Shown here piece by piece: positions 615-47,774 of a DNA stretch of 64,000 bases. A program made the translations under genes and the position numbers. Source of the DNA: Acidobacteriota bacterium (GTDB lineage: Bacteria > Acidobacteriota > Thermoanaerobaculia > Multivoradales > UBA5704); the NCBI GenBank assembly GCA_040005235.1, contig JBDTZG010000004.1:1-64000 (forward strand), given 5' to 3'. The notes under the pieces are model-generated. The model ran no database searches. It saw only the letters and a program-made list of their open reading frames with translations, and was not told where the DNA came from. How positions within the stretch are numbered: the first letter of the stretch is position 1; each line of letters begins with the position of its first letter.

Positions 615-740
615 TCATGGCTCACCACGAATCACGTGTACCACGAAAGGTACATCGCCGGCAAGGCCATCGGAGGGCGGGGAAGCAAGCCTGGCGCTGG
701 TCGCGCCCTTTCCGGGGCACCTATTCCCGCTCCACTCAGT

Positions 741-1061
741 TTATGCAGCAGCGGCGGTCACGCGGAGTTTGACCTGGGTCTTCTTCTGAAGCGCGCTAAT
801 GATCGAGAAGAAGTTCTCGGTGCTCGGGTTTCCGTTCGGCCCCAGCATCCGGTGCAAGCTCTTGCTTGGGGTGGCGATTTCGGCCGCAAGGCCTTCGAAA
901 CCGATGGTTGCATTGACGAGGTCGCGCAATACCGCCCTTCCCTCCGCAGTCTGGCCGGCAAGGAATGCGTTGATCGCCTCGCTGAAAAGGGCTTCGCGGA
1001 AGCGGGGGTCGCTGCCAGCGCGAGCCACGATGGTTTCCTTGAAATCCCGTGTCAGTGCCAT
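741..1061 (-). CDS. Addiction-module antidote / HTH antitoxin
   Basis: MALTRDFKETIVAR ... KSLHRMLGPNGNP; lies directly downstream of the killer gene. Confidence 0.8.
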   Translation of the reverse strand: MALTRDFKETIVARAGSDPRFREALFSEAINAFLAGQTAEGRAVLRDLVNATIGFEGLAAEIATPSKSLHRMLGPNGNPSTENFFSIISALQKKTQVKLRVTAAAA

Positions 1062-1085
1062 GTCAAACTCCTCGCTGTTAGAACC

Positions 1086-1418
1086 TTAGGGCCGTTTCTT
1101 GCGCCGTTTATAATCTGCCCAGCGGCCTTGCGCTATCGCAATCGCGTCCTGCTGCCGTTGCTTGCTGCTTCCCCCGAGCAAGATCACGAAGCGATTCCCG
1201 TCCTTCCCAAAGTAGATGCGATAGCCCGGTCCAAAATCGACCTTTCGCTCGAAGACTCCGGAACCGACCCCTTTGACGTTCGAGAAGTTGCCGGCTTCCA
1301 ATCGGTAGAGAGCCATGGCTACCTTCGCCGCCGCTTCGGCGCTCAAGTTGCCGAACCATGCTGCATGAGGTGAGGAGCCTCGCTCATCAAGGTACTCAAA
1401 AAGCTCAATCGGCAGCAT
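1086..1418 (-). CDS. RelE/ParE-family addiction-module killer toxin
   Basis: RLEAGNFSNVKGVGSGVFERKVDFGPGYRIYFGKDG ... ILLGGSSK; ATG at 1418. Confidence 0.85.
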   Translation of the reverse strand: MLPIELFEYLDERGSSPHAAWFGNLSAEAAAKVAMALYRLEAGNFSNVKGVGSGVFERKVDFGPGYRIYFGKDGNRFVILLGGSSKQRQQDAIAIAQGRWADYKRRKKRP

Positions 1419-1467
1419 GAGGTATGGTAACACAAGAGTTACCCAAGATCGGTCCCTCCTTAAACTT

Positions 1468-1552
1468 GGCCGAGCCCTCTGCTCAACGAAGTGATTGTTG
1501 GCGCCCTCGGCCCATGCACAGCGCCTCAATCCGCTCGAAATCTGCGCGCTCT
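1468..1552 (+). pseudogene. N-terminal fragment of HUH/Y1 transposase
   Basis: CTGCTCAACGAAGTGATTGTTGGCGCCCTCGG...CCGCTCGAAATCTGCGCGCTC resembles 3545-3616 and 9505-9575, with indels. Confidence 0.7.
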
Positions 1553-1830
1553 CCCGATTCCCGAAGGAGGCCGGCGGTCGTCCTGTCCCCTGTCGCCCCA
1601 CGAGGATCGGGCTTGTCCTTTGGTTAGGCTGGCACCCAATCCAGGCAGCACCCAATCCAGGCACCCATTCCAGTCCCTTTCACCGAACCGAACTCGTTAC
1701 CGCCGACCTGGATCTCGGCGAGCGGGAGGCGATTGCGCTCGCTCATCTCCTTCGCGCCGATCGGATGCGGGAGAGGGAGCCGGTTATAATGGCTTGGCGA
1801 TCGGCTGTTGCCGATCCGGAGGCCTCTAAC

Positions 1831-2070
1831 ATGCCAAGCTCCGCGACCGTGACGTTTCAGCAGGTTCTGGAGATCGTCGAAGGACTGCCGGAAGACCAGC
1901 AAGGAGAGCTGATCGAGATCGTGCGCCATCGACAGAGAGAGCACCGCCGTGAGACCCTGGCGGCCGGAATCGAACAGGCCCGCGGTGAGTTCGCCCGCGG
2001 AGAAGCTCGGCGCGGCACGGTCGAGGATCTGATGTCGGATCTCGCCGAGAACACCGAGACCAACGAGTGA
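1831..2070 (+). CDS. Putative antitoxin
   Basis: GGAGG RBS; short acidic helical protein whose stop overlaps the toxin start (GTGA). Confidence 0.7.
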   Translation: MPSSATVTFQQVLEIVEGLPEDQQGELIEIVRHRQREHRRETLAAGIEQARGEFARGEARRGTVEDLMSDLAENTETNE

Positions 2071-2351
2071 GAGAGCTGGTCTGGAGCAACACTTTTCGCC
2101 GCGCCTTGCGGCGGACGCTCAAGCGCCAGCCACAGTCCCTCGCCGACATCCAAGCGGCGTTGCGCCTCCTGCAGGAAAATCTTTTCGCCCCCCAGCTCTC
2201 CACCCACAAGCTCAAAGGAAAACTGGCCGGCACCTGGGCCTGCACCGCCGGCTACGACCTCCGCATTCTGTTCGAGCTGGTTCCCAACCCGGAGCGAGTT
2301 GAGGAAGACCTGTTCCTGATCGAAATCGGCACCCACGACGAAGTCTATTGA
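2067..2351 (+). CDS. RelE/YafQ-family mRNA interferase toxin
   Basis: LSTHKLKGKLAGTWAC ... YDLRILF ... IEIGTHDEVY. Confidence 0.85.
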   Translation: MRELVWSNTFRRALRRTLKRQPQSLADIQAALRLLQENLFAPQLSTHKLKGKLAGTWACTAGYDLRILFELVPNPERVEEDLFLIEIGTHDEVY

Positions 2352-2559
2352 AGGCTCCACCAGCTCCGATCGAGACCTGACTACCGCCTAACTAAGACCA
2401 GCTGCAGCTTGCGCTGCCGGCTGCCATTTTCGACCGAGAGCGGTCGTGCTGACCCCTTTCGTCGCTCGAGGATCGGTCCCGTCCTCGGGTTAGGCTGGCA
2501 CCTATTCGGGTTGATCGTTATGACTGCCGAAGTCCCAAAGTCTCGCCGACCGTCACGCG

Positions 2560-3143
2560 GAAGCCACGCGAGCGTTCCCGCGAAGCCACGTAGCATGGGG
2601 GTACGAAGCCACGCCAAACGGGGCTGAAGCAACGCGAACGGACCAAAATCGGCCGCTGGGGCCGGCGAAGCCACCGAGAAATTCGGCGAAGCCACCGAGA
2701 AATTCACTGAAGCCACACATTTAAGGGACGAAGCAACGCTCGGAGCCGGTGAAGCCACGCACATCGCTGGTGAAGCCACTCATCGAATGGCAAAAATTAC
2801 CGAGCCGTCCGCCGGAGTCACCGAGGAATGTGCCAAAATGGCCGGAAAATTCGGTCGATCCACCGATGTGGCGGGTCGACGGCGGGACTTCAGTGAATTT
2901 CTGCGTGGCTTCAGGGGTTTTCTCAGTGGCTTCAGTGAATTTCTCGGTGGCTTCAGCGAATTTCTCAGTGGCTTCAGTGATTTCCTCAGTGGCTTAGGCG
3001 TTCCGCTCTGTGGCTTCACGCCTCGCCGCGGTGAAACCAGCGTTCCGTTGTGTGGCTTCACCGTTCGGCGCGGTGGCTTCACCGTTCTGCCGGGCCGCTT
3101 GAATGATCGGCGCGGCGGCTTCAGCGAATTTCTCTGTGGCTTC
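2560..3143. repeat. Inverted array of 21-bp-period repeats (GAAGCCAC left arm, GTGGCTTC right arm)
   Basis: Left cores at 2560, 2582, 2605, 2626, 2667, 2688, 2709, 2730, 2751, 2772. Reverse-complement cores every 21 nt from 2884 to 3136, some degenerate. Confidence 0.9.
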
Positions 3144-3448
3144 CGGCCGCAACCGAACGACCTTGGCGCCACGACCACTGGTTCGGAGGTTTCGCCGCCC
3201 GCCGGCCTGCAGCGCGGCTCCCCCGTAAAAGATCTCGCGTCTGTCAGGATCTTTTGACACTTAGGTAAGCCCTGCACAATCAGTGCTTTCCACCCGATTG
3301 AATCAGATTTCCCTGGTTACCCCGCAAGATCTTTTGCGGGGTCGGGTCGCTGCCGGGAACTTGATCGCTCGGCGAAAGCCATGCGTTTTCTGTCGTTTCA
3401 CTCGACGCGCCTCGCCTGGCAGGGATTTTGAGATGCCCGGCTGCCGAA

Positions 3449-4396
3449 ATGGCCCGGAAGATCCGATTCACGCCCGAAGGGGGAGCCCTCTACGAGGTGA
3501 CCTGTCGCACGGTCCACAGCCGATTCCTTCTGCGGCCGGGGCCACTGCTCAACGAGATCATCGTTGGCGCGCTCGGCCGAGCGCAGCGCCTCTATCCGCT
3601 GGAGATCTGCGCGCTCATCTTCGCCTCGAATCACTTTCACCTTCTCGCCCGGGCGGAGGACAGCGAGCGCCTGGCCCGCTTCATGGGCTATTTCAACTCG
3701 AAGCTCGCCCGCGAGGTCGCCCGATCGACCGGCTGGCGGGACAAGGTCTTTTCTCGCCGCTACCAGGCGATTCTCGTGAGCGACGAGGAGGAAGCTCAGG
3801 TTGGGCGCCTGGTGTACATCCTCTTGCATGGCTGCAAGGAGAATCTGGTCGCCCGGCCCCAAGACTGGCCGGGGGTTCACTGTGTAACCGCGCTTCTCAC
3901 CGGCCAGCCGATCGAGGGGACCTGGTTCGATCGCACACGGGAATGGGAGGCGCGCTTGTGCGGTCAGGAATTCGGCGCTCGCCAGTTCGCGGAGACCGAA
4001 ACCGTAAGCCTCGCGCCCTTGCCCTGTTTGGCGCATCTCTCGCCCGAGCAGTACCGCGAGCGGATCGCCGAGTTGATCAACACGATCATCGAACAAGCCG
4101 CAGCTCGTCGAGCGGCGACGGGAATCGAGCCTCTGGGCGCCGCCGCGATCCTGCGCCAGCATCCGTTTACCCAGCCGGCCAAGACCAAGAAGTCGCCCGC
4201 GCCGCTCGTCCACGCCGCCAGCAAACGGGTCCGGACGGAGATCAAGAACGCCTACGCCTGGTTCGCCCGGGCTTTCCTAGAGGCGGCGGATTTTCTGCGG
4301 GCCGGAGATCGGCTGGCTCGGTTCCCCGGGGGGAGCTTCCCGCGCGGATTGCCGTTTGTTCGAGCGAGGCGGTTGGCGATCAGCCCAGCGGCGTAG
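3449..4396 (+). mobile_element. Intact HUH/Y1 (IS200-like, RAYT-like) transposase, 315 aa
   Basis: YEVTCRT near the N-terminus, HUH motif SNHFHLL, WRDKVFSRRY, and candidate catalytic Tyr in VYILLHGCKENLV. Confidence 0.85.
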
Positions 4397-4429
4397 GCAG
4401 GACCAGCCGCTTAAAGCCAAAAGGCTTCG

Positions 4430-4660
4430 GATAGCTACGACCGGCTGCCCAGGTGGCTGCGGTTCCACGTTCCGACACCTGGTTCGACCCTCCCGAAGGC
4501 CCTACGAGCTCCGATCTCGACCTGATTTCCACCCAAGACAGGCTGCAGCTCGCGCTGCCGGCCGCCGTTCTCGGCCGGGAGCGGTCGTTCTGACCCCTTT
4601 CGCCGCACGAGGATCGGTCTTGTCCTCGGGTTAGAGTGGCACCTATTCCCGGCACCTATT
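4430..4660 (+). repeat. Conserved 3' end region of the Y1 element ending in hairpin plus GGTTAGAGTGGCACCTATTC
   Basis: Recurs at about 2370-2507, 6251-6482, 8010-8200 and in part 1600-1670. Hairpin CGAGGA-N9-TCCTCG. Confidence 0.85.
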
Positions 4661-4669
4661 TCCGGTGGC

Positions 4670-4945
4670 TCCAAGACTGGCCAGGGGTTCACTGTGTCAC
4701 TGCGCTTCTCACCGGCCAGCAGATCGAGGGGACCTAGTTCGATCGCACACGGGAATGGGTGGCACGGTTACGGGGTAGGGAGGTCGGCGCTCAGTTCGCG
4801 GAAACCGAAGTCGTGAATGTCGCGCCCCTGCCCTGCAGGCAGGATCTTGCGGCAGAGCAATACCGCGATCGGATCGCGGAGTGGTCGTGGCGATCATCGC
4901 CAAGGCTGCCACTCGGCGAGCGGCGATGGGGATCGAGCCTCGGGG
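4670..4945 (+). pseudogene. Internal fragment of the Y1 transposase
   Basis: Similar to the intact gene from about 3860 to 4140, with a stop and deletions; begins right after the end motif. Confidence 0.8.
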
Positions 4946-5000
4946 CGCAAGACTCGCCAGTCCAGGTTGTTGTGATCTAGGATGAAATCGGAGGGACACA

Positions 5001-5276
5001 ATGGTCGTTACGATCAGCCTGCCAGAAGACATCTCTGAATCCCTCGCAGGGCATTGGGGAAACGTGTCTCGCCACGCCCTTGAAGCTATTGCCGTGGAGG
5101 GCTACCGAACGGGCGCTCTGACCGAGACGCAGGTGAGGCGTCTCCTCTGCCTAGAAACGCGGTTCGAGGTCCATGCGCTGTTCAAGGAGCACAGAGTGCC
5201 CCTCCTCTACACGAAAGCCGATCTGGAAGTAGACATCGCCGCCCACCGGGATCTCGGCCTCCTGGCCGGCCGATGA
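5001..5276 (+). CDS. UPF0175-family antitoxin
   Basis: ALEAIAVEGYRTGALT ... RFEVHALFKEH; overlaps the DUF3368 gene (ATGA). Confidence 0.8.
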   Translation: MVVTISLPEDISESLAGHWGNVSRHALEAIAVEGYRTGALTETQVRRLLCLETRFEVHALFKEHRVPLLYTKADLEVDIAAHRDLGLLAGR

Positions 5277-5761
5277 TCGTCATTGCAGACAGCGGGCCGC
5301 TCCACTACCTCATTCTTCTGGACAAGACAGAGCTTCTGCACCGTGTCTACGGGCAGGTCATTGCCCCAGAGGCAGTCCTCAGAGAGTTGACCGTGGCGAG
5401 TGCGCCCCAGCCGGTGAAGGACTGGCTCTCCCTACCTCCTTCCTGGCTGCAGGTCCAAGCGGTGCCTTTCGCTGAAACCGAGCTCGTTACCGCCGACCTG
5501 GATCTCGGTGAACGGGAGGCGATTGCACTTGCTCATCTCCTTCGCGCCGATCTGCTCCTGATCGATGAAGCCGCAGGGCGAGCCGAGGCGCGTCGTCGAA
5601 GCCTGCGAGTGACGGGTACGTTGGGTATCCTTCGGATCGCAGCCGAAAAGGGATGGATCGATCTACCGGAAGTTCTCACTCGCCTGCGCTGTACGAGCTT
5701 CTATGTGAACGAGGACCTGCTCAGGTCGATCTTCGGTCAGTGGCTGGGAGAAGTTGAATAA
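5273..5761 (+). CDS. DUF3368 PIN-domain toxin
   Basis: MIVIADSGPLHYL ... LDLGEREAIALA ... LLIDE ... GTLGIL. Confidence 0.85.
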   Translation: MIVIADSGPLHYLILLDKTELLHRVYGQVIAPEAVLRELTVASAPQPVKDWLSLPPSWLQVQAVPFAETELVTADLDLGEREAIALAHLLRADLLLIDEAAGRAEARRRSLRVTGTLGILRIAAEKGWIDLPEVLTRLRCTSFYVNEDLLRSIFGQWLGEVE

Positions 5762-5774
5762 CCGAGCTCAGATA

Positions 5775-6484
5775 GGTGGCGCGGCCAAGAATTCGGCGCT
5801 CGACAGTTCGCGGAAAGCGAAACCGTAAGCCTCGCGGTCTTGCCCTGTTTGGCGCACCTCTCGCCCGAGCAGTACCGCGAGCGGATTGGCGAGTTGATCA
5901 ACACGATCATCGAACAAGCCGCAGCTCGTCGAGCGGCGACGGGAATCGAGCCTCTGGGCGCCGCCGCGATCCTGCGCCAGCATCCGTTTACCCAGCCGGC
6001 CAAGACCAAGAAGTCGCCCGCGCCGCTCGTCCACGCCGCCAGCAAACGGGTCCGGACGGAGATCAAGAACGCCTACGCCTGGTTCGCCCGGGCTTTCCTA
6101 GAGGCGGCGGATTTTCTGCGGGCCGGAGATCGGCTGGCTCGGTTCCCCGGGGGGAGCTTCCCGCGCGGATTGCCGTTTGTTCGAGCGAGGCGGTTGGCGA
6201 TCAGCCCAGCGGCGTAGGCAGGACCAGCCGCTTAAAGCCAAAAGGCTTCGGATAGCTACGACCGCCTGCCCTGGTGGCTGCGGTTCCACGTTCCGACACC
6301 TGGTTCGACCCTCCCGAAGGCCCCACGAGCTCCGATCTCGACCTGATTTCCACCCAAGACCGGCTGCAGTTCGCGCTGCCGGCCGCCGTTCTCGGCCGGG
6401 AGCGGTCGTTCTGAGCCCTTTCGCCGCACGAGGATCGGTCTTGTCCTCGGGTTAGGCTGGCACCTATTCCGGGCACCTATTCCG
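5775..6484 (+). pseudogene. 3' half of the Y1 transposase plus end region, near-identical to about 3965-4660
   Basis: Direct repeat at offset 1821, identical over most of its length. Confidence 0.9.
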
Positions 6485-6612
6485 GCAGATCGATCTCCCT
6501 GAAGTCCTCGCTCGCTTGCGCCGTACGAGCTTCTATGTGAGCGAGGACCTGATCCGGTCGATCTTCGGTCGGTGGCTGGGGGAAGTTGAATGATCGGCCG
6601 ATAGAAATTGAT

Positions 6613-6921
6613 AGCCGCGATCCTCCGGCAGCAACCGTTCACCCAACCGGCCAAGACCAAGAGGTCCCCCGCGCCGTGGGTCCACGCCGCCAGCAAGAGG
6701 GTCCGAACCGAGGTCAAGATCGCCTACGCCTGGTTCGCCAGGGCTTTTCGAGAAGCGGCGGAGAATGCGGGCCGGCGATCGACTGGCTCGGTTTCCCCGG
6801 GGTTGCTTTCCTCCCGGTCTGCCGTTTGTCCGAGCGGATCGGTTGGCGATCGGGCCCGATCTATTGCGGCGCCGAGCGCCGAAGGCTGGGCGGGGTCGGG
6901 CCGCAGGTTAAGGTGGCACCT
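6613..6921 (+). pseudogene. Y1 transposase C-terminal fragment and end motif
   Basis: AAILRQQPFTQPAKTKRSPAPWVHAAS, frameshifted; GGTTAAGGTGGCACCT at 6906-6921. Confidence 0.8.
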
Positions 6922-6952
6922 GTCTGGCGCGCCTCAAGCGGCGTCCCGCGCC

Positions 6953-7144
6953 TCAAGCGGCGTCCCGAGAATTGCTTTCGCTAGCTTCACCATGGCCTTC
7001 TGGCCCATAGATCAGCCGTCCCTTAAACTGTGCCTGCAACTCCTCGTAGTGGGCAATCAACCGAGCCGGATCGTTACCGAACTCCCGCGAAATCTCGCTA
7101 CGGATCTTTCGGACCGCGGCGAGAGCCGGATCATCCTTGGTCAT
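6953..7144 (-). CDS. Small putative antitoxin downstream of the PIN toxin
   Basis: MTKDDPALAAVRKIRSEISREFGND; overlaps the 3' end of the toxin gene. Confidence 0.65.
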   Translation of the reverse strand: MTKDDPALAAVRKIRSEISREFGNDPARLIAHYEELQAQFKGRLIYGPEGHGEASESNSRDAA

Positions 7145-7616
7145 CGCTGCCTCCAAGCATTTCAAGCGGAGTGACGAGAGAGGGACTCAAGAGTCCGAGA
7201 AGGCTATTAACACGTCGGATATGTCCGAACTTGTTGGCGTTCGCCAGGTGCTTGCAGTTCCACGTCACGAGAAAGTCACAGCGGTGGTAGGAAGCGAGAG
7301 CCAGGTGCAGCGCGTCCCCCGCAGGATCCGCGGGCATAACTTGGTGGCGAATGTACCCCGCAACGATTTCGAGGACTGCCGGTTCGATAGCCAGAGCAGG
7401 AAGTTCTGCTACCAAATCAAGGCAGGCCTGCCGCGACGGAAAGTCCCCCCTCCCCAGTTCTTCGACGACGGCCAGGCTCGTAACCAACTCGACCGTGTCT
7501 GAGGCCCGGGCCCACCACTCGCGTGTCCACTCGCGACGCGCCACCATCTCAGCCTCCGGCCTCGTTTCGAAGTAGAAGCTGGGGATCGAAGTCTCCACGT
7601 ACGCGCGGCTTCTCAT
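7131..7616 (-). CDS. PIN-domain (VapC-like) toxin
   Basis: AYVETSIPS ... DALHLALAS ... DFLVTWNCKHLANA. Confidence 0.85.
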   Translation of the reverse strand: MRSRAYVETSIPSFYFETRPEAEMVARREWTREWWARASDTVELVTSLAVVEELGRGDFPSRQACLDLVAELPALAIEPAVLEIVAGYIRHQVMPADPAGDALHLALASYHRCDFLVTWNCKHLANANKFGHIRRVNSLLGLLSPSLVTPLEMLGGSDDQG

Positions 7617-7696
7617 GAGAGCCTCAGTCTACCGCGCGGCGGCGGAAGCTCAATCAGGGATAACGAGTAGAGTGTCTCCCGGCCTCTGATGTCGCC

Positions 7697-8205
7697 TCGG
7701 CGAGTGGTGACGGGAATCGAATCTCTGGGCGCCGCCGCGATCCTCCGGCAGCATCCGTTCACCCAGCCGGCGAAGACCAAGAAATCCCCCGCGCCGTGGG
7801 TCCACGCCGCCAGCAAAAGGGTCCGAACCGAGGTCAAGATCGCCTACGCCTGGTTCGCCAGGGCATTTCGAGAAGCGGCGGAGAATCTGCGGGCCGGCGA
7901 TCGGCTGGCTCGGTTTCCCCGGGGTTGGTTTCCTCCCGGTCTGCCGTTTGTTCGGTTGGCGATCAGGCCGGCCACCTAGACCAGGGCCAGCCGCCTATCC
8001 CAAATCTTCAAATCGCTACGACCGCCTGTCCTGGTGGCCCCGCAGGCTCCGAGAGCGGCATGATTTCGCCTAAGACCGGCCGTAGGTCGCCCTGCCGGAG
8101 TCAGTTTTCGTCCAGGAAGCGGTCGTCCTGTCTCGTCGTCGCACGAGGATCGGTCTCGTCCTCGGGTTAGGATGGCACCTATTCGGGCCACCTATTCGGC
8201 ACCTG
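7697..8205 (+). pseudogene. Y1 transposase C-terminal fragment plus end region
   Basis: TGIESLGAAAILRQHPF ... FPPGLPFV; GGTTAGGATGGCACCTATTC at 8165-8184 followed by tandem variants. Confidence 0.85.
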
Positions 8206-8328
8206 CTCCCGCGTGGCTCAGAGAACGGCGGGGGCGACCAGCAGGCAGCGCCTTTGATTTTGTGGCGCGTGTGATTAAACCTTAAGCGACGCCGATAACG
8301 AAGAAGGATAAGTGGAAATATTTAGCCA

Positions 8329-9111: not shown

Positions 9112-9408
9112 CTAGCTCAGCTAGGGGGCCCGCCCCCGGAAGGTGCCATGCGATCCTAGAAGCTCGAATCAGAGACGCCGACTCGCCCCCCGCAAAAGAT
9201 CTGGCGGACCGTCAAGATCTTTTGCACCCCCTGCCGCGCAGAGAGGAATCGGCGGGGATTTCCTCGATCGTCGCCTCGGCTTTGGCCAGATCCCTTGCGC
9301 CTCGGACGGACACTCAGCTCCGGCGCGACGACTCTAAGTTGCTGCTTCTCATGCAGCTAGCCCCTAGTGGGCAGATTGGCACTGACCTTGAGTTGCTGGC
9401 AGACTGCC

Positions 9409-10347
9409 ATGCCTCGCAAGATTCGCTTCACGCCCGAAGGCGGCGCCCTTTACGAGGTCACCTGCCGCACGATCCAGAGCTGATTCCTGCTGCGGCCGAG
9501 CCCTCTTCTCAACGAGGTCATCCTCGGCGCGCTCGGCCGCGCTCAGCGACTCTACCCGCTCGAAATCTGCGCGTTCTTCTTCGTTAGTAATCACTTCCAC
9601 CTCTTGGCGCGCGCAGACGACAGCCAGCGCCTCGCCAACTTCATGGGCTATTTCAACTCCAAGCTCGCCCGAGAGGTGGGTCGGCTGACCGGCTGGCGCG
9701 ACAAGATCTTTGCTCGCCGCTACCAGGCGATCCTGGTCAGTGAAGAAGAGGAAGCCCAGGTCGGGCGCTTGCTCTATCTGCTCTCTCATGGCGCCAAGGA
9801 GAACCTGGTCGCCGACCTTCGGGAGTGGCCGGGCGTTCACTGCGTCGATGCCCTTCTGACCGGTGAATCTTTGGAAGGCACCTGGTTCGATCGGACGGAG
9901 GAGTACACCGCCCGCCAGCGCGGCGGGGAATTCGGCGCCCGCGAATACTCCAGCGCCGAGACCGTCGCGTTGACACCCCTGCCCTGTTGGGCCGACCTCT
10001 CGCCGGAGGAATACAAGGCGCGAATTGCCGATCTCCTTGAAGCGATCGTCACCGGAGCCGCCAATCGGCGATCGGCGACGGGGATCCAGCCGCTCGGCCG
10101 GGCCGCGATCCTGAGCCAGCATCCGTTTTCCCAGCCCACCAAGACCAAGAAGTCGCCCGCCCCGCTCGTCCACGCCGCCAGCAAGCGCGTCCGCACCGAG
10201 ATCAAGATCGCCTATGCCTGGTTCGTGAGGGTATTCCGGGAAGCAGCCGAGTACCTGCGCGCCGGGGACCGCCTCGCCCGATTCCCGAAGGGGAGCTTCC
10301 CTCCCGGTCTACCCTTCGTCCGAGCGGCGGTCGGCCCGGCGGGTTGA
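9409..10347 (+). pseudogene. Full-length Y1 transposase with one in-frame stop
   Basis: ATG 9409 (MPRKIRFTPEGGALYEVTCRT); TGA at 9481-9483 where the 3449 copy has CGA; SNHFHLL is retained. Confidence 0.85.
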
Positions 10348-10939
10348 CCGCCGGCGGCGCCGGCCGCTCCACGCCATGATTCATCGCTACGACACAAACT
10401 ATCGGCGGTGCCTACCGCCGAAGGCCGAGCCGCACTCGTCGGCCGTGGTGAAGACCTGCTATTCAATGACTCTCTTCCCGAATGTGAATCGTCGCGACCG
10501 CCGGCTGCCTAAACCGGGACACTCGAACGGCCTTTGAAGCTCTTCTGGCAGAGGGGGATCTGGTTGGCTGCCTCTACTTGGCTGGCACCTCTTGCCGGGC
10601 GCCTATTCCACACCTATTCCGGGCGGCACCTATTCGTGATGGAGCGTTTCTTCCCGATTTCTCGCGTTCTTAGAAGGAAGCGATATCGGAGGTCGCGGTC
10701 GGACGGGAGGTCCCATGGAAGCCAATGGTCTGGTGTCATTGCTGATTGCGGTCATCGGTCTGGTGCTCATGTTCGCTCAACTCAAACTATTCTCGATCGA
10801 CAGCAGCTTAAAGCGGATTGTTGATCTGCTCGAACGCGGCGCCAAAGAGGAAGGGAGGGGGCCGTCCGGAGATTAGGCTGGCACCTATTCCGGGCTGTTG
10901 GCTGCCTCTACTTGGGTGGCACCTCTTGCTGGCGAACCA

Positions 10940-11095
10940 CGTGAAGGCGATCTTCATCGCGGTCCGAACCCGTTTGCTGGCAGCGTGGACGAGCGGCGCA
11001 GGCGATCTCTTGGTCTTGGTCGGCTGGGAGAACGGGTGCTGTCGGAGGAAGGCGGTCCGGCCGAGTGGCTCGATTCCGGTTTCGGCTCGGCGAGG
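10940..11095 (-). pseudogene. Inverted Y1 transposase fragment
   Basis: Reverse strand resembles the TGIEPLGR ... QHPFSQPTKTKRSPAPLVHAASKRVRT segment. Confidence 0.75.
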
Positions 11096-11130
11096 GTCGC
11101 TCTCGGTTAAGCTGGCACCTATTTTGGCAC

Positions 11131-11721
11131 CTATTTTGGGCTTGAAATCGGTGTACGTTCTTGCCCTTCAGGCACCACCTCGGAGGTGGCCTGACCGGTG
11201 GCCAGGCCCTCGTGCATCCACGCGTCCGACCGTTCAGTCGGTGACGCATTGTAGGGCGGCAGCGAGTTCATGAACTGAATGAAATCAGAATCGAATTGAG
11301 ATGAGAGTTCGAGATCCCAAGCCCGTCTGAAATTGGAACGCGAGAGCCACCAGCGCATATAGTCGCACCACCCGGTCCATTGTTTGTTGGCTGGATCAGG
11401 ATGCCCACGGTACAAGAGAAATGCCTGTTCCATGACCGAAACCAGTATATTGAAAGCAATCCATTCGCGTTTCACGTCGCGTGGAGTGGACGCCCCAGGA
11501 GAAACGAGATCGTAGATATCGAGTTCCGGATGCTCGAAGCACAACTTTAGGTACTCGATGTATTGATTGTTCGGGGATAAGTAGATCTGAGCCTGCCGCT
11601 CAAACCGCTCTCGACGCTGCTCAAACCAGAAGACCAGAATAGCAATCGGGATACCCAAGAACGTTGCGGCCGAGGCCAGAGCGTCGAGCCAATCCTTGAG
11701 CGCTGAGTCAATTTGCGGCAT
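11131..11721 (-). CDS. Hypothetical membrane-anchored cassette protein
   Basis: N-terminal TM segment, GGGAGG RBS, and GTTAGGC 34 nt upstream on the coding strand. The C-terminus runs into element DNA. Confidence 0.7.
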   Translation of the reverse strand: MPQIDSALKDWLDALASAATFLGIPIAILVFWFEQRRERFERQAQIYLSPNNQYIEYLKLCFEHPELDIYDLVSPGASTPRDVKREWIAFNILVSVMEQAFLLYRGHPDPANKQWTGWCDYMRWWLSRSNFRRAWDLELSSQFDSDFIQFMNSLPPYNASPTERSDAWMHEGLATGQATSEVVPEGQERTPISSPK

Positions 11722-11944: not shown

Positions 11945-12240
11945 GTGTAGGCGATCTTCATCTCGGTTCGAACTCGTTTCGCTGGCGGCGTGGACGGGCG
12001 GCGCGAGAAATCTCTTGGTCTCGGTCTGCTGAGAGAACGGGTGCTGTCGGAGGACGGCGGCCCGGCCGAGGGGCTCGATTCCCGTTTCGGCTCGGCGAGC
12101 AGCGGCCTTGGCGATGATCGCCTCGACCAACTCCGCGATCCGCTTGAGGTACTGCTCCGCCGAAAGATCTCTCGCCAGTAGGGCAAGGGCGCGAGACCTA
12201 CGGTTTCGGTTTCCGCGAACTACCGAGTACCGAATTCCTT
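11945..12240 (-). pseudogene. Inverted Y1 transposase fragment
   Basis: DLSAEQYLKRIAELVEAIIAKAAARRAETGIEPLGRAAVLRQHPF. Confidence 0.8.
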
Positions 12241-12563
12241 GTGGCACAGTCGCGCTTCCCCTATTGCGGTCGAAGGCTGGGCGGGTCGGTTCGCAGGTTA
12301 GGGTGGCACCATCGGGGGGGGCACCTATTCGGATCGAGCCGCAGGTTAGGGTGGCCTGGCACTTTTCTTCCGTTGCCTTTGACACCAGGGAGACCCTTGC
12401 TTTAGCATCTGTCACGAATTGAAAATCAAGGAGAATAGGCCCCAGGAAGCGATCGACGTGGCAAGTCTTTGGCGGGCGGCAGTCGAAGCATGTCCCTCTC
12501 TGCCTCCTTAGCCTTTTTCTCCTCAAACCTCCACCTGGCCGACACTAGGCAACTGAGGTAACC

Positions 12564-35543: not shown

Positions 35544-35718
35544 GGGGGCTCCCAAGCGAAGCTCGCCTCCCGGCATTAGGCGCGAGCGCTCCTGTAAAGG
35601 CTGGTGCGCTCGTTTCGGTCAGGCGAGCCCGGCTCTACAAGAAGCCGCCTGCCAAGACGCAGGAGCCGTCCGCCAACTCGCAATAGCCACCTGCGAAATC
35701 GCATACCGCCCGCCCGCT

Positions 35719-35822
35719 AGAAGAGGGCGGCACCTATTTGGACCCCCTATTCGGACCGGAGCCGCGAGGTTGGAGCCCCAAGCTCGCCCGCTTCATGGGC
35801 TGTTTCAACTCGAGCTCGCCCG
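35719..35822 (+). mobile_element. Y1 end motif plus a tiny transposase remnant
   Basis: AGAAGAGGGCGGCACCTATT, then GCCCGCTTCATGGGCTGTTTCAACTCGAGCTCGCCCGC (compare 3674-3712). Confidence 0.7.
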
Positions 35823-35941
35823 CCAGCAGCGGCGGGGAGTCCAAAGCGTCACCCCTCGCCACTGAAGGTCCCCTGCTCGCCTGAAGAATCGTCCGGAAAT
35901 GGGGTTTCGCCGGCCAGGAAAAGGCAACGCCGCTCGCCAAC

Positions 35942-39407: not shown

Positions 39408-39656
39408 TCATTCGCCACCGGGCAGGCGATCCTCCGGTCTGGGCTCGGAAGAGGGCACCTTGGCGAGGACCCGCTCGAACAACGCGCGGTCGCCACGGCT
39501 CGCGCGACCCTCCAAATAGGCGACGGTCGTCAAAGCGGCGAGTTTCTCGGCTACGGCGGTCGCGATGAACTGATTCATCGAGATCCCTTCCTGCCGCGCC
39601 AGTTCGCCCACCGAGCGATGCAGGGATTCCGGGAGTCGAAGGCTTAGGGTACTCAT
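39408..39656 (-). CDS. HicB-like/RHH antitoxin
   Basis: MSTLSLRLPESLH ... GISMNQFIATAVAEK. Confidence 0.8.
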   Translation of the reverse strand: MSTLSLRLPESLHRSVGELARQEGISMNQFIATAVAEKLAALTTVAYLEGRASRGDRALFERVLAKVPSSEPRPEDRLPGGE

Positions 39657-40084
39657 GGCAATTCTCCTAGAACCGTGAGGAAGTCAGCGGGGGTGAGGAC
39701 TTCGATCCCAAACCGATCGGCGCCGACGAAATCGCGGATATTGAAAGTGACGATGAACTGGCAGCTGCCCGCAACTGCGACCTCAAGCACCATGTCATCG
39801 CCGGGATCGCGAAGCGTCGGGCGCCAGAGAAAGAAGATCTCTTGGCGATGGCTCGTGGCGCAAAGGTAATCGAGAACGACCGCGATATCCTCGACGGTGA
39901 TCGGCGTGATCGCCGGAAGCGGGGCCAGAGCATGTTCGTACTCGAGAACGAGAGGTACGGATACAACGACCTGGAACTTCGACCCGCCGACCAGCTGAAG
40001 CAAACGATACGAGGCACCCTTCGACGACCTCATTGCCGCGTAGAGAACGTTCGTGTCGAGGACGATACGAGGCACTCTTGGCAT
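39653..40084 (-). CDS. PIN-family toxin
   Basis: IVLDTNVLYAA ... LRDPGDDMVLEVA ... IVTFNIRDF. Confidence 0.85.
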   Translation of the reverse strand: MPRVPRIVLDTNVLYAAMRSSKGASYRLLQLVGGSKFQVVVSVPLVLEYEHALAPLPAITPITVEDIAVVLDYLCATSHRQEIFFLWRPTLRDPGDDMVLEVAVAGSCQFIVTFNIRDFVGADRFGIEVLTPADFLTVLGELP

Positions 40085-40169
40085 GGTGGCGCCGATGATA
40101 CCATCGAGTCCGGCCGTCTGACCCTTCCCCACCTGAGGTCCCCCGACCGTTTTCGATCCGGCTGGCCCG

Positions 40170-40760
40170 GGCCGCTTCTCAACGAGCGCGGGTTGAAGAC
40201 ATCGCCGAGTTGGTCGATGCGATCATTAAAAAAGCCGCCGCTCGGCGATCCGAGACTGGAATCGAACCCCTCGGCCCGGCAGCGATCCTCAAGCAACAGC
40301 AGTTCTCTCAACCGGCCAAGACCAAGAAGTCGCCCGCCCCGCTCGTCCACGCCGCCAGCAAACAGGTGCGGACCCAGATCAGGATCACCTACGATTGGTT
40401 TGTCCGGGCCTTCCGCGAGGCGGCGGAATTCCTGAGAGCTGGCGACCGGCAGGCGCGCTTTCCGCAAGGGTGCTTTCCGCCCGGGTTGCCGTTTGTTCGA
40501 GAGGGGCGGTTAGTAGCGATCATGCCGGCCACGTAGTCGGGGATCACCCGTTCAACGCAAAGCAGAGTCCTCTCGAAGTCCCGGCCGGTGGGCCGCGATT
40601 CGCCGCCCCGAGACCCCAAGTGCTTCGATTTTGGCCTCACTTCCTGCCAAGAGCTGGCTTACGCCAGGACCTCTCTACAGCTTCCGGACGCCGGGCGGAG
40701 TCTCTTCGCCTCGCGGTTGCCGCACTTCGAGCGGGGTCGCTCCACCTTTTAGGCACGTTT
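40170..40760 (+). pseudogene. Y1 transposase fragment(s) plus degenerate end region
   Basis: ETGIEPLGPAAILKQQQFSQPAKTKKSPAPLVHAAS ... FPPGLPFV; the downstream sequence resembles 46165-46420. Confidence 0.8.
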
Positions 40761-41256: not shown

Positions 41257-41436
41257 ATGAAAAACAAGGTCTTCCGGAAGCTTTCCATCTCCCGCGAGAC
41301 GGTTCATCGCCTTGAGGGTCTGGCACTCGAAGGAGTGGTCGGAGCCGCCACCCTTGCTTGCACTACGGTGACCCGACCAGGGTGCTCGGGTTGCGAGAGC
41401 TGCACCTGCCCGACCCAAGTCACCTGCCCTCCGTAG
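41257..41436 (+). CDS. Lanthipeptide-like RiPP precursor 2 (59 aa)
   Basis: AGGAGG RBS; MKNKVFRKLSISRETVHRLEGLALEGVVGA-ATLACTTVTRPGCSGCESCTCPTQVTCPP. Confidence 0.85.
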   Translation: MKNKVFRKLSISRETVHRLEGLALEGVVGAATLACTTVTRPGCSGCESCTCPTQVTCPP

Positions 41437-41474
41437 AAAAGGCGACCGACCGAGACGCTCAGGCGGAACGTTGG

Positions 41475-42776
41475 ATGGGCAGTCACGGCAAGCATTGGGC
41501 TCCGGTGCTTTCGGGCGATTTGGCCAGAGAAGCGCTCGGAGCCGTTGATGACGTGGCAAAGGACCTCCGCCTCACTTTTTGCGCAGATCCCGCCGGCCCG
41601 GCTTGGTCGCACTTTTCTGAGCGCTACGGCTCGCTAAGTGGCGGTCAGGCCGGGCTGGCCCTATTCTTCTCCTACCTCGACCGTTCCCAGCCGGATCGAG
41701 GCAACGACGTAATCGCTGCAAATTGCCTTGACCGGGCGATCGAATGGATGTCTTCGGCAGAGACCAGCGTAGGCCTATTTACCGGATTTGCCGGCGTGGC
41801 TTGGGCTCTCGAGCACCTTCGCGCGGAGATCGTCGATCCGCAGGCCGAAGACTTGGGCGCGGATGTCGCCACATTTCTTTTGAAGCTGGCCGACGAAACG
41901 CCCTGGCAAGGGGAACTCGATCTTATCGAGGGGCTCGCTGGACTCTGCCTCTACGGCCTTGAACGCCTGCCGCTGCCCGACAGCCGGGAACTGATCGAGG
42001 CGACCGCCACGCGGCTTTACGAGGCCGCTGTGATTCGCGACGATGGATCGAGCTGGTTGACCGCGCCCGAGCGGCTGATTCCGATGCGCCGAGGTCAATA
42101 TCCAAACGGAAACTTCAATCTTGGGCTGGCGCACGGCGTACCTGGAATTGTCGGAGCGCTCGCCCTCGCTGAAGCCGCAGGAATCATTCAGCCCAAGAAT
42201 CAGCTCGTGCTGCGCGACGCGGTGCGATGGCTTCGTGGACAGAGACTCTCGCCAGGAGAGAGGTCGCAATTTCCTTCCTGGGTGGGTGGTACCCAACCGC
42301 CGCAGCCGACGCGTCTCGCATGGTGCTATGGCGATCTCGGAATCGCGCTCGCACTTCACGCTGCCGCACTCGCCATCGGCGAGGAGACTTGGGAGCAACT
42401 GGCGCTGGAAATCGCTCGGGGTGCCGCGGTGCGTCCCGCAGACACTTGCGATGTGGTCGATGCGGGTTTTTGTCACGGCGCCGCAGGCCTGGGCCATCAG
42501 TTCAATCGTCTTTTCCAGAAAACGGGAGACGAGCTGTTCAGAGAGGCGGCGGTCTACTGGCTGCGCCTTACGCTCGAGCTCAGGAGTCCGGGCGAAGGGG
42601 TCGGAGGTTTTCGCGCGCGGGGTCCTGATCGCGCCGATCAAGAGACTTGGCTGGCGGATCCGGGCCTTCTGACGGGGGCTGCAGGTGTGGGCCTCGCTCT
42701 CCTCTCGGCCGCAACAGACGTAGAGCCGAAATGGGATCGGTTGTTTCTATGCTCCGCGCGTGACGACGGGTCCTAA
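41475..42776 (+). CDS. lanC: LanC-like lanthionine cyclase
   Basis: LGLAHGVPG, AWCYGDLG, GFCHGAAG (Zn ligands), GLLTGAAGVGLALL. Confidence 0.9.
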   Translation: MGSHGKHWAPVLSGDLAREALGAVDDVAKDLRLTFCADPAGPAWSHFSERYGSLSGGQAGLALFFSYLDRSQPDRGNDVIAANCLDRAIEWMSSAETSVGLFTGFAGVAWALEHLRAEIVDPQAEDLGADVATFLLKLADETPWQGELDLIEGLAGLCLYGLERLPLPDSRELIEATATRLYEAAVIRDDGSSWLTAPERLIPMRRGQYPNGNFNLGLAHGVPGIVGALALAEAAGIIQPKNQLVLRDAVRWLRGQRLSPGERSQFPSWVGGTQPPQPTRLAWCYGDLGIALALHAAALAIGEETWEQLALEIARGAAVRPADTCDVVDAGFCHGAAGLGHQFNRLFQKTGDELFREAAVYWLRLTLELRSPGEGVGGFRARGPDRADQETWLADPGLLTGAAGVGLALLSAATDVEPKWDRLFLCSARDDGS

Positions 42777-45238: not shown

Positions 45239-45317
45239 CGCTCATTATTACGACAGCCGCGCTAGCAGCGCAACGATGCAGCGTTCGAGTTTCGCGCCCG
45301 GCCGCCCCAAGGAGGTT

Positions 45318-46422
45318 CGCTCTACGAGGTGACCTGCCGCACCTTCCAGAGCCGGTTCCTCCTGTGGCCGGGTCCGCTGCTCAACGAGATCATCGTCGGC
45401 GACCTCGGCCGAGCGCAGCGCCTCTACCTGATCGACATCTGCGCGTTCTTTTTTGCCTCCAATCACTTCCACCTCTTAGCGCGGGTCGAAGACAGCGAGC
45501 GCCTCACCCGCTTCATGGGCTATTTCAACTCGAAGCTCGCCCGCGAGATCGCCCGATCGACCGGCTGGCGGGACAAGGTCTTCTCTCGCCGTTACCAGGC
45601 CATCCTCGTGAGCGACGAGGAAGAGGCTGGGTCGGGCGCCTGGTCTACATCCTTTCCCATGGCTGCAAAGAGAACCTGGTCGCCCGCCCCCAGGATTGGC
45701 CGGGAGTCCAATGCGTCACCGCCCTGCTCACCGGCCAGCCGATCGAGGGAACCTGGTTCGATCGCACCAAGGAATGGAAGGCGAGGGTAGGCGGGGAAGA
45801 GTTCGGCGTCCCGCAGTTCGCCGAAACGGAAGTCGTGAACCTCGCGCGCTTGCCCTGCTGGCAGCATCTCTCGGCGGAGCCGTACCGCGGCCGGATCGCC
45901 GAGTTGGTCGAGGCGATCCTCCGGCAGCAACCGTTTTCCCAGCCCGCTAATTAAGACGAAGAAGTCGCCCGCGCCACTCGTCCACGCCGCCTGCAAGCGG
46001 GTCCGTACCCAGATCAGGATCACCTACGCCTGGTTCGTTCGGGCCTTCCGCGAGGCGGCCGAGTACCCGAGAGGCCGGCGACCGGCAGGCGCGATTTCCC
46101 CAAGGATGCTTTCCGCCCGGCTTGCCGTTCGTTCGAGCGGGCCGGTAGGGAATCACACCGGCTACGTAGTCAACATCACCCGCTCAACTCGAAGCAGAGC
46201 ACGCTCGAAGTCCCGGCTGTCAGGCCTGTGGGCTGCGATTCGGCGCCTACGTGGCCGCCACGATCGTCAGCCGGCCCGATCTCCACCTCATTCACCGCCA
46301 TGGGCTGGCGGCGAAGGGGCTCCGTCTCCAACTTCCGGTTGCCACGAGGGGGCCTTTCGACACCCCTTTTCCGGGCTGCAGGCTTCGAGGTGTTCTTCTC
46401 CCAGAAGAGGGTGGCACCTTTT
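45318..46422 (+). pseudogene. Frameshifted near-complete Y1 transposase plus end region
   Basis: LYEVTCRT ... SNHFHLL with several frameshifts; ends CTTCTCCCAGAAGAGGGTGGCACCTTTT. Confidence 0.85.
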
Positions 46423-46519
46423 GGGGCGGGAGGACCGGGAGGACCACAACCACTCCTGCAAAAGCTTGAAGGGGTGCTAGGCTGCTTCCGTCGGCCACCT
46501 AACGGCTTAGGAGAACTAG

Positions 46520-46672
46520 ATGAAGAATGCAGCCAGGAAATTGACCCTCGCCAAAGAAACCCTCCTGTCCCTCAAGAAGCCAGACCTCACCCATGTGGCC
46601 GGAGGGAATAAGGCCGCGTCCTCTCAAGCATGGCCCGACGGCATCTGCCCGGACTCATACTGTTTCTGCTAG
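46520..46672 (+). CDS. Lanthipeptide-like RiPP precursor 3 (50 aa)
   Basis: TAGGAG RBS; MKNAARKLTLAKETLLSLKKPDLTHVAGG-NKAASSQAWPDGICPDSYCFC; not in the ORF track. Confidence 0.75.
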   Translation: MKNAARKLTLAKETLLSLKKPDLTHVAGGNKAASSQAWPDGICPDSYCFC

Positions 46673-46858
46673 AGAACTCCAGCGAGGTGCCTTGAAGCTT
46701 CCAAGGGCCCCGCCTGCTCCAACCCGAACTCCCTCTCTGCTCGTGTCCGGGTCGAGCAGAGAGATTCTGCACCTTCTGCGATTCGGGTTATTCCAGAACC
46801 GGCTGGCACGCTTTGCTGCGGGCTCTTCTCCCAGAAGAGGATGGCACCTTTTCCGGTT

Positions 46859-47774
46859 GGACAAGGTCTTCTCTCGCCGTTACCAGGCAATCCTCGTGAG
46901 CGACGAGGAAGAGGCCCAGGTCGGGCGCCTGGTCTACATCCTTTCTCATGTCTGCAAAGAGAACCTGGTCGCCCGACCCCAGGATTGGATTGGCCGGGAG
47001 TCCAATGCGTCACCGCCCTGCTCACCGGCCAGCTGATCGAGGGAACCTGGTTCGATCGCACCAAGGAATGGGAAGCCAGGCTTCGCGGCGAAGACTTCGG
47101 CGTCCGGCAGTTCGCCGAAACGGAAGTCGTGAACCTCGCCCCCTTGCCCTACTGGCGGCGTCTCTCGGCGGAGGAGTACCGCGACCGGATCGCCGAGTTG
47201 GTCGAGGCGATCGTTGAAAAAGCCGCAGCTCGGCGATCCGAGACGGGAATTGAACCCCTCGGCCGGGCAGCGATCCTCAAGCAGTACCCGTTCTCGCAGC
47301 CGACCAAGACCAAGAAGTCGTCGGCGTCGCTCGTCCACGCCGCCAGCAAACGGGTGCGTACCCAGATCAGGATCACCTACGCCTGGTTTGTTAGGGCCTT
47401 CCGCGAGGCAGCCGAGTACCTGAGAGCCGGCGACCGGCAGGCGCGCTTTCCGCAAGGATGCTTTCCGCCCGGCTTGCCGTTCGTTCGAGCGGGCCGGTTG
47501 GCGAGCACGCCGTCCACGTAGTCAGGATCACCCGCTCAACGCGAAACAGAGCCCGCTCGAAGTCCCGGCCGCTTGGCCGGTGGGCCGCGATTCGGCGTCT
47601 ACGTGGCCGGCACGATCGTCAGCCGACCCGATCTCCACCTCCTACCGCCATAGGCTGGCGGCGAAGGGGCTCCCTCTCCAACTTCCGGTTGCCACGAGAG
47701 GGCCTTTCGACCCCCTTTGCCGGGGCTGCTGCACTTCGAGGTGCTAGTCTCCCAGAAGAGGGTGGCACCTTTTG
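46859..47774 (+). pseudogene. 5'-truncated Y1 transposase plus end region
   Basis: Starts at DKVFSRRY right after the end motif at 46839-46852; GATTG duplication frameshift near 46985; end motif at 47760-47774. Confidence 0.85.

Follow-up and report, generated by a model that had tools for sequence, protein, structure and literature searches.

The locus and its repeated element

The stretch of DNA analysed here, positions 1 to 64,000 of contig JBDTZG010000004.1 in assembly GCA_040005235.1 of an Acidobacteriota bacterium (hereafter the window), covers the first 64 kb of its contig, begins at the contig end, and holds two islands, at 0-12.4 kb and 40-48 kb, in which copies of one mobile element have accumulated. 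Self-comparison with BLAST revealed that the window is rich in complete and partial copies of one sequence of about 1.2-1.5 kb, and that the right ends of these copies carry a short motif, GGCACCTWTT (the core). The two islands contain one intact gene, two pseudogenes and roughly a dozen truncated or internally deleted pieces, most of which retain the right end, and on these comparisons they are piles of decayed element copies. Judging from the alignments described below, the core is the outer tip of a terminal block of about 23 nt, GG-TTAGG(C/G)-TGGCACCTATTCC(G)G, that ends an element of about 1.5 kb. It is probable that this element is of the TIRtron type, a class in which a Y1 HUH nuclease gene is flanked by terminal inverted repeats (TIRs), and that its nuclease would nick at or beside the core.

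The best-preserved copy (3190..4665, + strand) comprises a left region devoid of an inverted tip (3190-3427), an intact nuclease gene, a conserved 3' region (about 4495-4628) and a block with two cores (4629-4665). Positions 3190-4653 are 93% identical to a homologous locus from database genomes, L007, and this similarity begins exactly at CCTGCAGCGCG.

An earlier reading of this DNA, made from the sequence alone, had proposed a repeated end motif, and its occurrence is far above chance: the window has 16 exact matches, all on the + strand (716, 2497, 4638, 4651, 6459, 6472, 8174, 10625, 10880, 11114, 11126, 12320, 35729, 46413, 46843 and 47764), against 0.22 expected and a maximum of one in dinucleotide-preserving shuffles. 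When up to two mismatches are allowed, 67 matches are found versus 30 expected, and the degenerate cores at 1631/1660, 6915, 8187/8198 and 10584-10609 fall within this set. The whole assembly (6.22 Mb) has 39 exact matches, of which 16 lie on the contig of the window (C35), nine on contig C18, and the remaining 14 are singletons, one on each of 14 strand-contig combinations. As the number expected by chance, about 16 by our rough composition estimate and not computed by a tool, is close to that of the scattered singletons, the excess of the motif is located in the islands. The strict block (10 copies in 6.2 Mb) is found on C35, C18 and a third contig, C4, only, and nuclease-gene copies and fragments on C35 and C18 only, which in the whole genome amount to two intact genes and two pseudogenised ones, with about 13 fragments besides.

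Anatomy of the terminal block

In order to define the outer limit of the block, 70 distinct TTA-R-V-N-TGGCAC sites from the homologous loci and from the genome were aligned, the positions inside this pattern being fixed by construction. Upstream of the fixed pattern two G residues are conserved at frequencies of.91 and.83, while downstream the profile reads C.99, T.90, A.83, T.93, T.80, C.73, C.59, G.67 and G.67, after which every base is at or below.46. This drop indicates that the copies share an outer breakpoint about 21 nt beyond TTAGG, where conservation reaches background, and the alignments of the window copies concur. Unrelated DNA thus starts directly beyond the motif, as the sequence-only reading had stated. 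That reading had also named in advance two outcomes that would speak against it, a motif as frequent in core regions as elsewhere and flanks without a shared breakpoint; given that the genome-wide scan places the block in element islands and not in core regions, and that the breakpoint is common, neither was observed.

At the right end the block sits behind a short inverted repeat, and the hairpin leads into GGTTAGGCTGGCACCTATTCCGG. The two hairpin subtypes described previously are both present at the positions then listed, CGAGGA-N9-TCCTCG-GGTTAGG at 1622, 2488, 4629, 6450 and 8165 and CTTCT-CCC-AGAAG-AGG at 46409, 46839 and 47760. A third context, ...CGCAGG-TTAGGG-TGGCACC, had been overlooked; it is present at 6906 and 12296 and represents the left-end form elsewhere. 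The fold of the right end has z-scores from -0.1 to -2.5.

The same block is found in inverted orientation on the other side of the gene. Its reverse complement, (A)ATAGGTGCCACCCTAACCTGC..., lies upstream of the gene in many loci, at times with repeated cores, and when left regions were collected with one landmark pattern, seven of the 14 copies showed the inverted tip AATAGGTGCCACCCTAACC 20-45 nt upstream of the landmark, an eighth (L010) having the variant CCCTGACC. Both ends are present in the intact C18 copy, whose left tip bears a perfect 20-nt duplication, and in the window copy at 9137-10636. Right ends mostly carry TTAGGC and left ends mostly TTAGGG, and typical left and right tips, as read from the alignments, match at about 19 of 21 positions. 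The inverted presence of the block at the left end of many copies is what identifies the element as TIRtron-like, that is, as a Y1 gene with terminal inverted repeats.

This arrangement changes how the orientation of the motif is to be read. Rather than being intrinsically polar, as had been proposed, the motif is a terminal inverted repeat that faces outward at both element ends. The + sites at 6906 and 12296 are left-end-type tips, which accounts for part of the apparent polarity, and the rest of the + strand excess arises because copies that are 5'-truncated or internally deleted retain the right end. The observation that the motif keeps its + orientation even beside inverted transposase fragments is not supported in the sense intended, since at 12296 and at 11105, the latter a site of a third context, the inverted fragment lies on the inner side. 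Of the three reverse copies previously reported, that at 9141 is indeed an element end, namely the left end of the copy at 9137-10636, while 48507 (GAAGGTGCCA) and 52491 (ATAGGTGCCA) match the core alone and may be chance occurrences, because neither the remainder of the block nor an element context is present there. Likewise, the motif does mark a boundary between mobile element and foreign DNA, but it is not a free-standing cargo signal. Toxin-antitoxin modules lie among the ends and are found beside them again in other genomes, and by our reading of the comparisons nine of the 11 segments between motifs in 1-12.4 kb also contain pieces of the nuclease gene. The labels "cargo" and "polar" are over-read.

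The left region holds further conserved elements upstream of the nuclease gene, namely the palindromes CAAAAGAT-N-ATCTTTTG and CCCCGCAAGATCTTTTGCGGGG (3322-3345 in the window, and in homologous loci), which may serve as subterminal recognition hairpins or else as an operator or promoter. Adjacent to it, at 2589-3189, is a stretch of short, degenerate repeated words of the GAAGCCAC type, inverted copies of which lie at 2667-2716 and 2926-2975; a region of this kind accompanies the left side of the element both here and in L052. The TGGCAC in the block resembles what we take to be the -24 element of sigma-54 promoters; a promoter of this kind was discarded, as there is no TTGC at the required spacing and the -12 element does not fit.

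The nuclease

The only open nuclease gene among the window copies (3428-4393, given as 3428..4396 in the feature list; + strand) encodes a protein of 322 aa (P0001), and the encoded proteins of the family range from 305 to 322 aa. According to domain searches, alignment and structure prediction, it is a Y1 HUH (tyrosine) nuclease of the RAYT/TIRYT branch. Pfam Y1_Tnp (PF01797) matches residues 55-126 with E 8e-5, and NCBIfam NF047646, "REP-associated tyrosine transposase", matches with E 3e-11. More than 1,555 related database proteins were found, of about 305-315 aa and many of them named "RayT", and in an alignment of 30 homologues the residues H69 and H71 of the HUH motif (NHFH) and Y130, the predicted catalytic tyrosine within YILLHG, are invariant. 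An AlphaFold2 model (pLDDT, the predicted local distance difference test, 82) was best matched in Foldseek by the Escherichia coli TnpA-REP structure 4er8_A, which contains a REP hairpin (E 1.7e-4), followed by TnpA chains of ISDra2 and IS608 (2xm3, 2vhg and others), and a profile search of PDB sequences retrieved the same families weakly. The C-terminal half is conserved across the 30 homologues and confidently modelled; it has no PDB match in Foldseek and no DnaA_C or other helix-turn-helix (HTH) domain in the Pfam search, in which Y1_Tnp was the single match.

Distribution of the block and the gene

A combined pattern and tblastn scan returned 65 loci, often several per genome, nearly all of them in metagenome-assembled genomes of Thermoanaerobaculia or Holophagales (Acidobacteriota), and 27 gene-bearing loci were examined. 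In all 27 the core lies near the 3' end of the gene, mostly about 120-340 nt past the gene match and nearer in a few truncated matches; it usually comes after ...GGTTAGGCT, and extra cores often lie beyond it. The linkage of core and gene persists in proteins with identity as low as 54%.

A search with the 13-mer TTAGGSTGGCACC gave 68 hits in seven of the eight genomes of the genus, versus four for a reversed control, and none in four genomes of other genera of the same family. The hits are clustered on few contigs per genome and, by our count, 40 are of the TTAGGC and 28 of the TTAGGG form. Runs of TTAGGC blocks in the same orientation recur, as on contig C103 of genome G002 (five + sites) and on C36, C53 and C152 of G004. 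No complete genome carrying the block was found among the genomes searched. The GC skew of C35 is +0.005, which is too weak to count, and that of C18 is -0.014, these being the signs expected for both contigs if the block lies on the leading strand.

The block as a junction and the origin of tandem cores

The 70 sites were classified by the DNA on their inner side: 30 are proper right ends, six are proper left ends, nine are fused to an internal point of the element and thus represent internal-deletion derivatives, and at 25 no element DNA can be recognised on that side. Outside the block, an element piece in the same orientation starts within 50 nt at 10 of the 70 sites, at points anywhere in 3222-4483 of the reference, window position 4667 being one such case, and three more sites precede an inverted piece. 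Blocks also adjoin internal pieces of other genes, as at 1673-1762, which is a copy of 5462-5552, and at L006:1985.

Further cores, one or two in number, lie within 60 nt at 23 of the 70 sites, with periods mostly of 12-16 nt, and the tandem cores noticed in the sequence-only reading are present at seven window sites (1631, 4638, 6459, 8174, 10584, 11114 and 12320). In 13 of 18 close core pairs the full unit of 9-20 nt differs at no more than one position, unusual spacers included, and the duplicated units sometimes take in flanking DNA (20 nt in C18, 16 nt in L046). Near-perfect units that include idiosyncratic spacers indicate recent duplication in situ and not the juxtaposition of ends of separate elements. 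Where the register is unambiguous, by our reading, the left boundaries of these duplications are T|GGCACC (C18), TG|GCACC (L046) and TGG|CACC (L014), while their right boundaries vary; at two sites a duplication of 36-37 nt begins in the hairpin loop.

Tandem cores of this kind fit nick-and-repair or slippage at a hot site, as far as can be judged from aligned copies, and do not fit separate insertions side by side. It is a serious possibility, although we hold it to be somewhat below even, that they result from plain replication slippage at a repeat-prone short sequence, independently of the nuclease. The near-perfect units, their variable period of 9-20 nt and the CGG microhomology shared by the larger duplications (L016:3132, L046:2304) are all compatible with such slippage, whereas an incidence of 23 in 70 sites is very high for one 12-nt sequence without internal repeat, and left boundaries confined to 3 nt together with variable right ones are what synthesis from a fixed nick is expected to leave. 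Because duplications start within these 3 nt, because junctions are found on both of its sides, and because internal joins are arbitrary, the core would be a site of recurrent breakage.

A group II intron that lands in the core

The core is also the place at which a family of group II introns, assigned to Rfam families RF00029 and RF02003, is inserted. In the window, a 5'-truncated intron (48746..49325, + strand) retains the maturase tail and domains V-VI (RF00029 at 49177-49325, 45.6 bits), is followed by the half core CCTTTTG, and is 90.7% identical to C18:17450-18041. A second piece (47775..47925, + strand) is the 3' part of an intron joined on its left to the block at 47764, beyond which 130 nt are a 5'-truncated copy of the same intron end as at 49177-49325, and it is followed by CCTTTTGCC-GCACCTTTTGCC, a half core and a core. 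Other copies are L096:1361-3393 and C18:17435-18050. For the 2.03-kb intron of L096, which like L091 is a full-length relative, the 5' junction reads ...GGTTAGGCTGGCA|GTGCGACACG... (in short GGCTGGCA|GTGCG) and the 3' junction ...GACTCTAC|CCTATTTGGGGGCACCTATTCC... (in short CTCTAC|CCTATTTGG), and the 5' junction of L091 is identical to that of L096. The intron 3' end abuts a CCTATT- or CCTTTT-like half core in 11 of 20 BLAST rows, the window and C18 included and some rows being duplicates, and further cores often lie beyond this half core. Fixed junctions on both sides imply that the intron homes precisely into the core, at GGCA|CCTATT, and on this evidence the terminal core is the landing site of the intron family.

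Comparison with known systems

RAYT-like genes flanked by TIRs have been named TIRYT or TIRtrons, and their description reports that the TIRs also occur solo, as dimers or in clusters, that there is a sharply defined group in Acidobacteria, and that many TIRs, although not all, share GGGGWSAS (Di Nocera et al. 2013, PMC3733652). In a later classification, most TIRYTs fall in TnpA-Y1 subclass 2.1, which is characterised by NH[YF]H (the HUH forms of class 2 and subclass 2.1 being NHVH or NH[YF]H), Y---NP, a C-terminal HTH (Bac_DnaA_C, HTH_23 or HTH_28), about 1.9 copies per genome and a behaviour that is not like that of insertion sequences (ISs) (Quentin et al. 2018, PMC6006769). The family described here agrees with this class in having a RAYT-like Y1 HUH gene flanked by TIRs instead of REP hairpins, TIRs that are solo, dimeric or clustered, and an NHFH that fits NH[YF]H. 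On the other hand, its TIR is GGTTAGGSTGGCACCTATT and not GGGGWSAS, the closest run of GGGG, GGGGTCGA/G within the left region, failing at position 7; its tyrosine motif is YILLHG, or Y-x-L-S/L-H-G, without NP in 30 of 30 homologues; it lacks an HTH Pfam domain; and it occurs in multiple copies, leaving numerous truncated ones and arrays. The comparison with the published Acidobacteria group is by description alone. From its sequences, the Thermoanaerobaculia family fits the TIRtron definition, departs from subclass 2.1 and is a variant of a barely studied class: in the literature searched, the terms TIRYT and TIRtron are confined to the two papers cited, the accessible portions of which contain no biochemistry.

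With the IS200/IS605 family (IS608, ISDra2) the element shares the Y1 HUH catalytic fold, a short inverted repeat just inside the right end and the absence of target-site duplications in the copies seen here, and its clustering in one orientation would suit strand-specific insertion. It differs in a protein of 322 aa versus about 130-150 aa for TnpA, in having neither Y---Q nor tnpB, in the presence of a TIR, and in subterminal palindromes that are unrelated on the left and right, whereas those ISs have similar hairpins at both ends; in addition, the DNA 5' of the left end showed no conserved short target in 14 copies. The possibility that the core serves as an IS608-like target 5' of the left end was rejected, since left ends without a tip are not consistently preceded by a direct core. 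The REP/REPIN-RAYT systems are similar in that TnpA-REP (4er8) is the best structural match, the gene is flanked by inverted repeats and homologues are labelled "RayT", and they differ in that the repeat here is neither a GTAG-headed palindrome nor dispersed, and in that the gene is multi-copy and decaying rather than single-copy and domesticated. Rolling-circle HUH transposons (IS91/ISCR, Helitrons) resemble it in the over-representation of one end, truncations anchored at that end and tandem termini; unlike the element described here, they lack TIRs and rely on Y2 or Rep-helicase enzymes, and there is no sign of rolling-circle replication in this element.

Proposed mechanism and alternative explanations

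The nuclease would recognise the block at both element ends and nick one strand at or beside the core, and end-mediated joining, deletion and repair at the nick could then give rise to truncated copies, head-to-tail arrays of right ends and tandem cores. Arrays in the same orientation may result if insertion is strand-specific and takes place beside ends already present, with end-mediated deletions afterwards. That the block is the site of cleavage and strand transfer, as the sequence-only reading suggested, is a reasonable inference from these arrangements. The tip duplications point to the 3-nt stretch T|GG|CACC as a candidate nick site, the same spot that the intron targets.

Several observations weigh against a nuclease element bounded by this block. 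The inverted tip is missing from six of 14 left regions, including that of the intact window copy at 3190, and the distance between tip and landmark varies; the element may not require a left tip. A paralogue junction between C4 and C35 lies at |GGCACC, which places breakpoints on both sides of the core, and the behaviour of the block is in part that of a separable unit. For the right-end hairpin, covariation gives no support: 77% of cells are paired, and 429 of 500 shuffles do equally well. The scores of the protein are modest, PF01797 being barely at its cut-off (23.2 bits versus 23) and NF047646 below it (43 versus 80 bits), and the loci were retrieved through the gene, which biases the context counts to gene-linked sites. 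Within the genome, copies are 83-88% alike and are thus old, too old for their comparison to sharpen the element ends, and no excision product, circle or empty site was found in the contigs of four public runs, out of 20 listed, aligned to 1-13000. All the joints in those runs match arrangements of paralogues or relatives, for instance 6474 to 3384, an L007-type right end with a truncated left region. When the flanks of the 45-48 kb cluster were compared with 30 relatives for an empty site, the left flank returned paralogous matches only and the right flank a conserved intron piece, and a palindromic empty target, with the left core abutting the right core, was not found in the genome or the loci.

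The block could instead be an autonomous recombination site like attC or REP, and not simply an element end, in which case a Y1 nuclease would exchange segments between same-orientation copies as cassettes. Several observations favour this: same-orientation arrays, spaced by 0.2-2.4 kb and recurring in several genomes (on the G002 and G004 contigs mentioned above), lie between small cassette-like genes, many of them toxin-antitoxin genes; such modules abut blocks with different neighbours (window 1764-2357 versus L039; 716-949 versus C4); module order varies between close relatives; breakpoints occur on either side of the core; and the block is a homing site for a group II intron, as attC is for IIC-attC group II introns. 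The GTTAGGC in the block is also identical to what is presumably the integron R' core. We consider this explanation unlikely, because an inverted copy at the left end suits a TIR and not a cassette array, because nuclease-gene pieces occupy nine of 11 segments between blocks, and because the toxin-antitoxin module of L039 has no downstream right end. Moreover, no integron integrase was found, the best match to TIGR02249, which lies on other contigs, reaching 71.5 bits where the cut-off is 265, with all 14 control genomes similarly below threshold, and the symmetry of R''/L'' with L'/R' is lacking, as a GCCTAAC partner accompanies only one of five window right ends, at 2385, the sole copy that folds with R''-R' pairing. 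An integron in the strict sense was accordingly rejected, for want of IntI and R''/L'' partners and for the inverted copy at left ends. A further version of the cassette explanation, in which the block is the crossover site of an HUH-driven, integron-like exchange platform whose site the intron parasitises as IIC-attC introns do attC, is quite improbable; if it were true, a Y1 enzyme acting on single-stranded DNA would capture and reshuffle toxin-antitoxin pairs and other small modules.

Alternatively, the block might be maintained for a purpose other than transposition, as the operator of a regulator or as an intron homing site, while the nuclease acts elsewhere, for example at the subterminal palindromes. 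Intron homing is exact and the left region does hold other conserved palindromes (CAAAAGAT...ATCTTTTG and CCCCGCAAGATCTTTTGCGGGG), yet similarity between copies stops at the block and not at the palindromes, the block occurs at both ends as an inverted repeat, and most blocks are without an intron, which makes such a role very unlikely indeed. A TIRtron-type element with the block at its ends is thus the reading that we retain as probable. With a sharply delimited end of 23 nt, natural deletion derivatives and a candidate nick position, this family makes the DNA mobility and the cut site of long Y1 nucleases directly testable, and elements of this kind build the repeat-rich, toxin-antitoxin-laden islands that break Acidobacteriota assemblies.

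Copies and fragments in the window

Self-comparison delimited complete and partial copies at 3417-4665, 9377-10335, 45303-46425, 46859-47776, 5781-6485, 7696-8196, 6614-6856, 40201-40605, 78-245 and 4667-4948, together with inverted pieces at 10931-11094 and 11947-12260; the features that follow are given on the + strand. In the first island, a solo core without TTAGG, GGCACCTATTCCCG (716..729), is together with the module to its right 97.5% identical to C4:36525-36762, and the DNA to its left differs. An internally deleted derivative (1467..1673) joins a 5' gene piece (1467-1552) to a right end (1574-1647) and to a block (1622-1673) in which three variant cores occur, and a solo right end of 160 nt (2350..2510; block 2488-2510) starts where a YafQ-like toxin gene (2067-2351) has its stop codon. 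Immediately beyond the block of the intact copy lies a 5'-truncated gene piece for aa 145-238 (4667..4948), followed by a 3' fragment for aa 179-322 with its right end and a two-core block at 6450-6485 (5781..6485; 97% identical to 3960-4665), by a gene fragment (6614-6856) with a left-end-type block CGCAGG-TTAAGG-TGGCACCTGTC at 6906-6926 (6614..6926), and by another 3' fragment with right end and a three-core block at 8165-8210 (7696..8210). The copy at 9137..10636 is full-length but pseudogenised: its left tip, CCGGAAGGTGCCA at 9137-9150, is inverted, its gene (9388-10323) is interrupted by an in-frame TGA, and its right block (10575-10636) contains four degenerate cores. Two blocks (10871-10895, and 11105-11140 with a perfect 12-nt duplication) surround an inverted gene fragment (10931-11149; the whole 10871..11140), and a further inverted fragment (11947-12260) precedes a left-end-type block that has an extra core (12296-12333) and, after it, a partial block (12345-12370; the whole 11947..12370).

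Between the islands there is an isolated block, AGAAGAGGGC-GGCACCTATT, with a 45-nt gene scrap at 35783-35826 (35716..35826). The second island contains a 3' fragment of a gene of a second subfamily, for aa 211-321 (40201..40605), with a degenerate core GGCACGTTTT at 40752, a frameshifted copy of the same subfamily (45303..46426) with the hairpin CTTCT-CCC-AGAAG and the block AGGGT-GGCACCTTTTGGGG (46391-46426), and a 5'-truncated copy (46859-47749) between two blocks (46830-46856 and 47750-47776; the whole 46830..47776).

Neighbouring genes and other features

Small gene pairs resembling toxin-antitoxin systems lie densely among the element remnants, at 286-561, 741-1373, 1826-2351, 5001-5758, 7131-7834, 37328-37995 and 39408-40129, and include HTH, YafQ-like toxin, UPF0175 with DUF3368, PIN, and HicB with PIN_3 types; two of these pairs recur beside terminal blocks in other genomes or contigs. 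Directly beyond the first island, 12564-14198 encodes a protein of 545 aa with an N-terminal TIR domain (PF13676, E 1.4e-20), which could be a defence gene, and a LanC-like lanthionine synthetase gene (41358-42773; PF05147, E 7.5e-42) is located between the two parts of the second island.

Elsewhere in the window, a tRNA gene on the - strand (31223-31296) lies near a match to the small RNA Acido-Lenti-1 (31397-31442; 38.5 bits against a gathering score of 37). A respiratory gene cluster encoding a multihaem cytochrome c, a 4Fe-4S dicluster protein and an NrfD-like membrane protein is present as a diverged inverted duplication, 24194-28342 versus 54383-60617, with 66-77% DNA identity, and a reprolysin-like metalloprotease of 1036 aa with fn3 domains (49330-52437) contains internal tandem repeats of about 277 nt (50802-52430) that are 78-82% identical.

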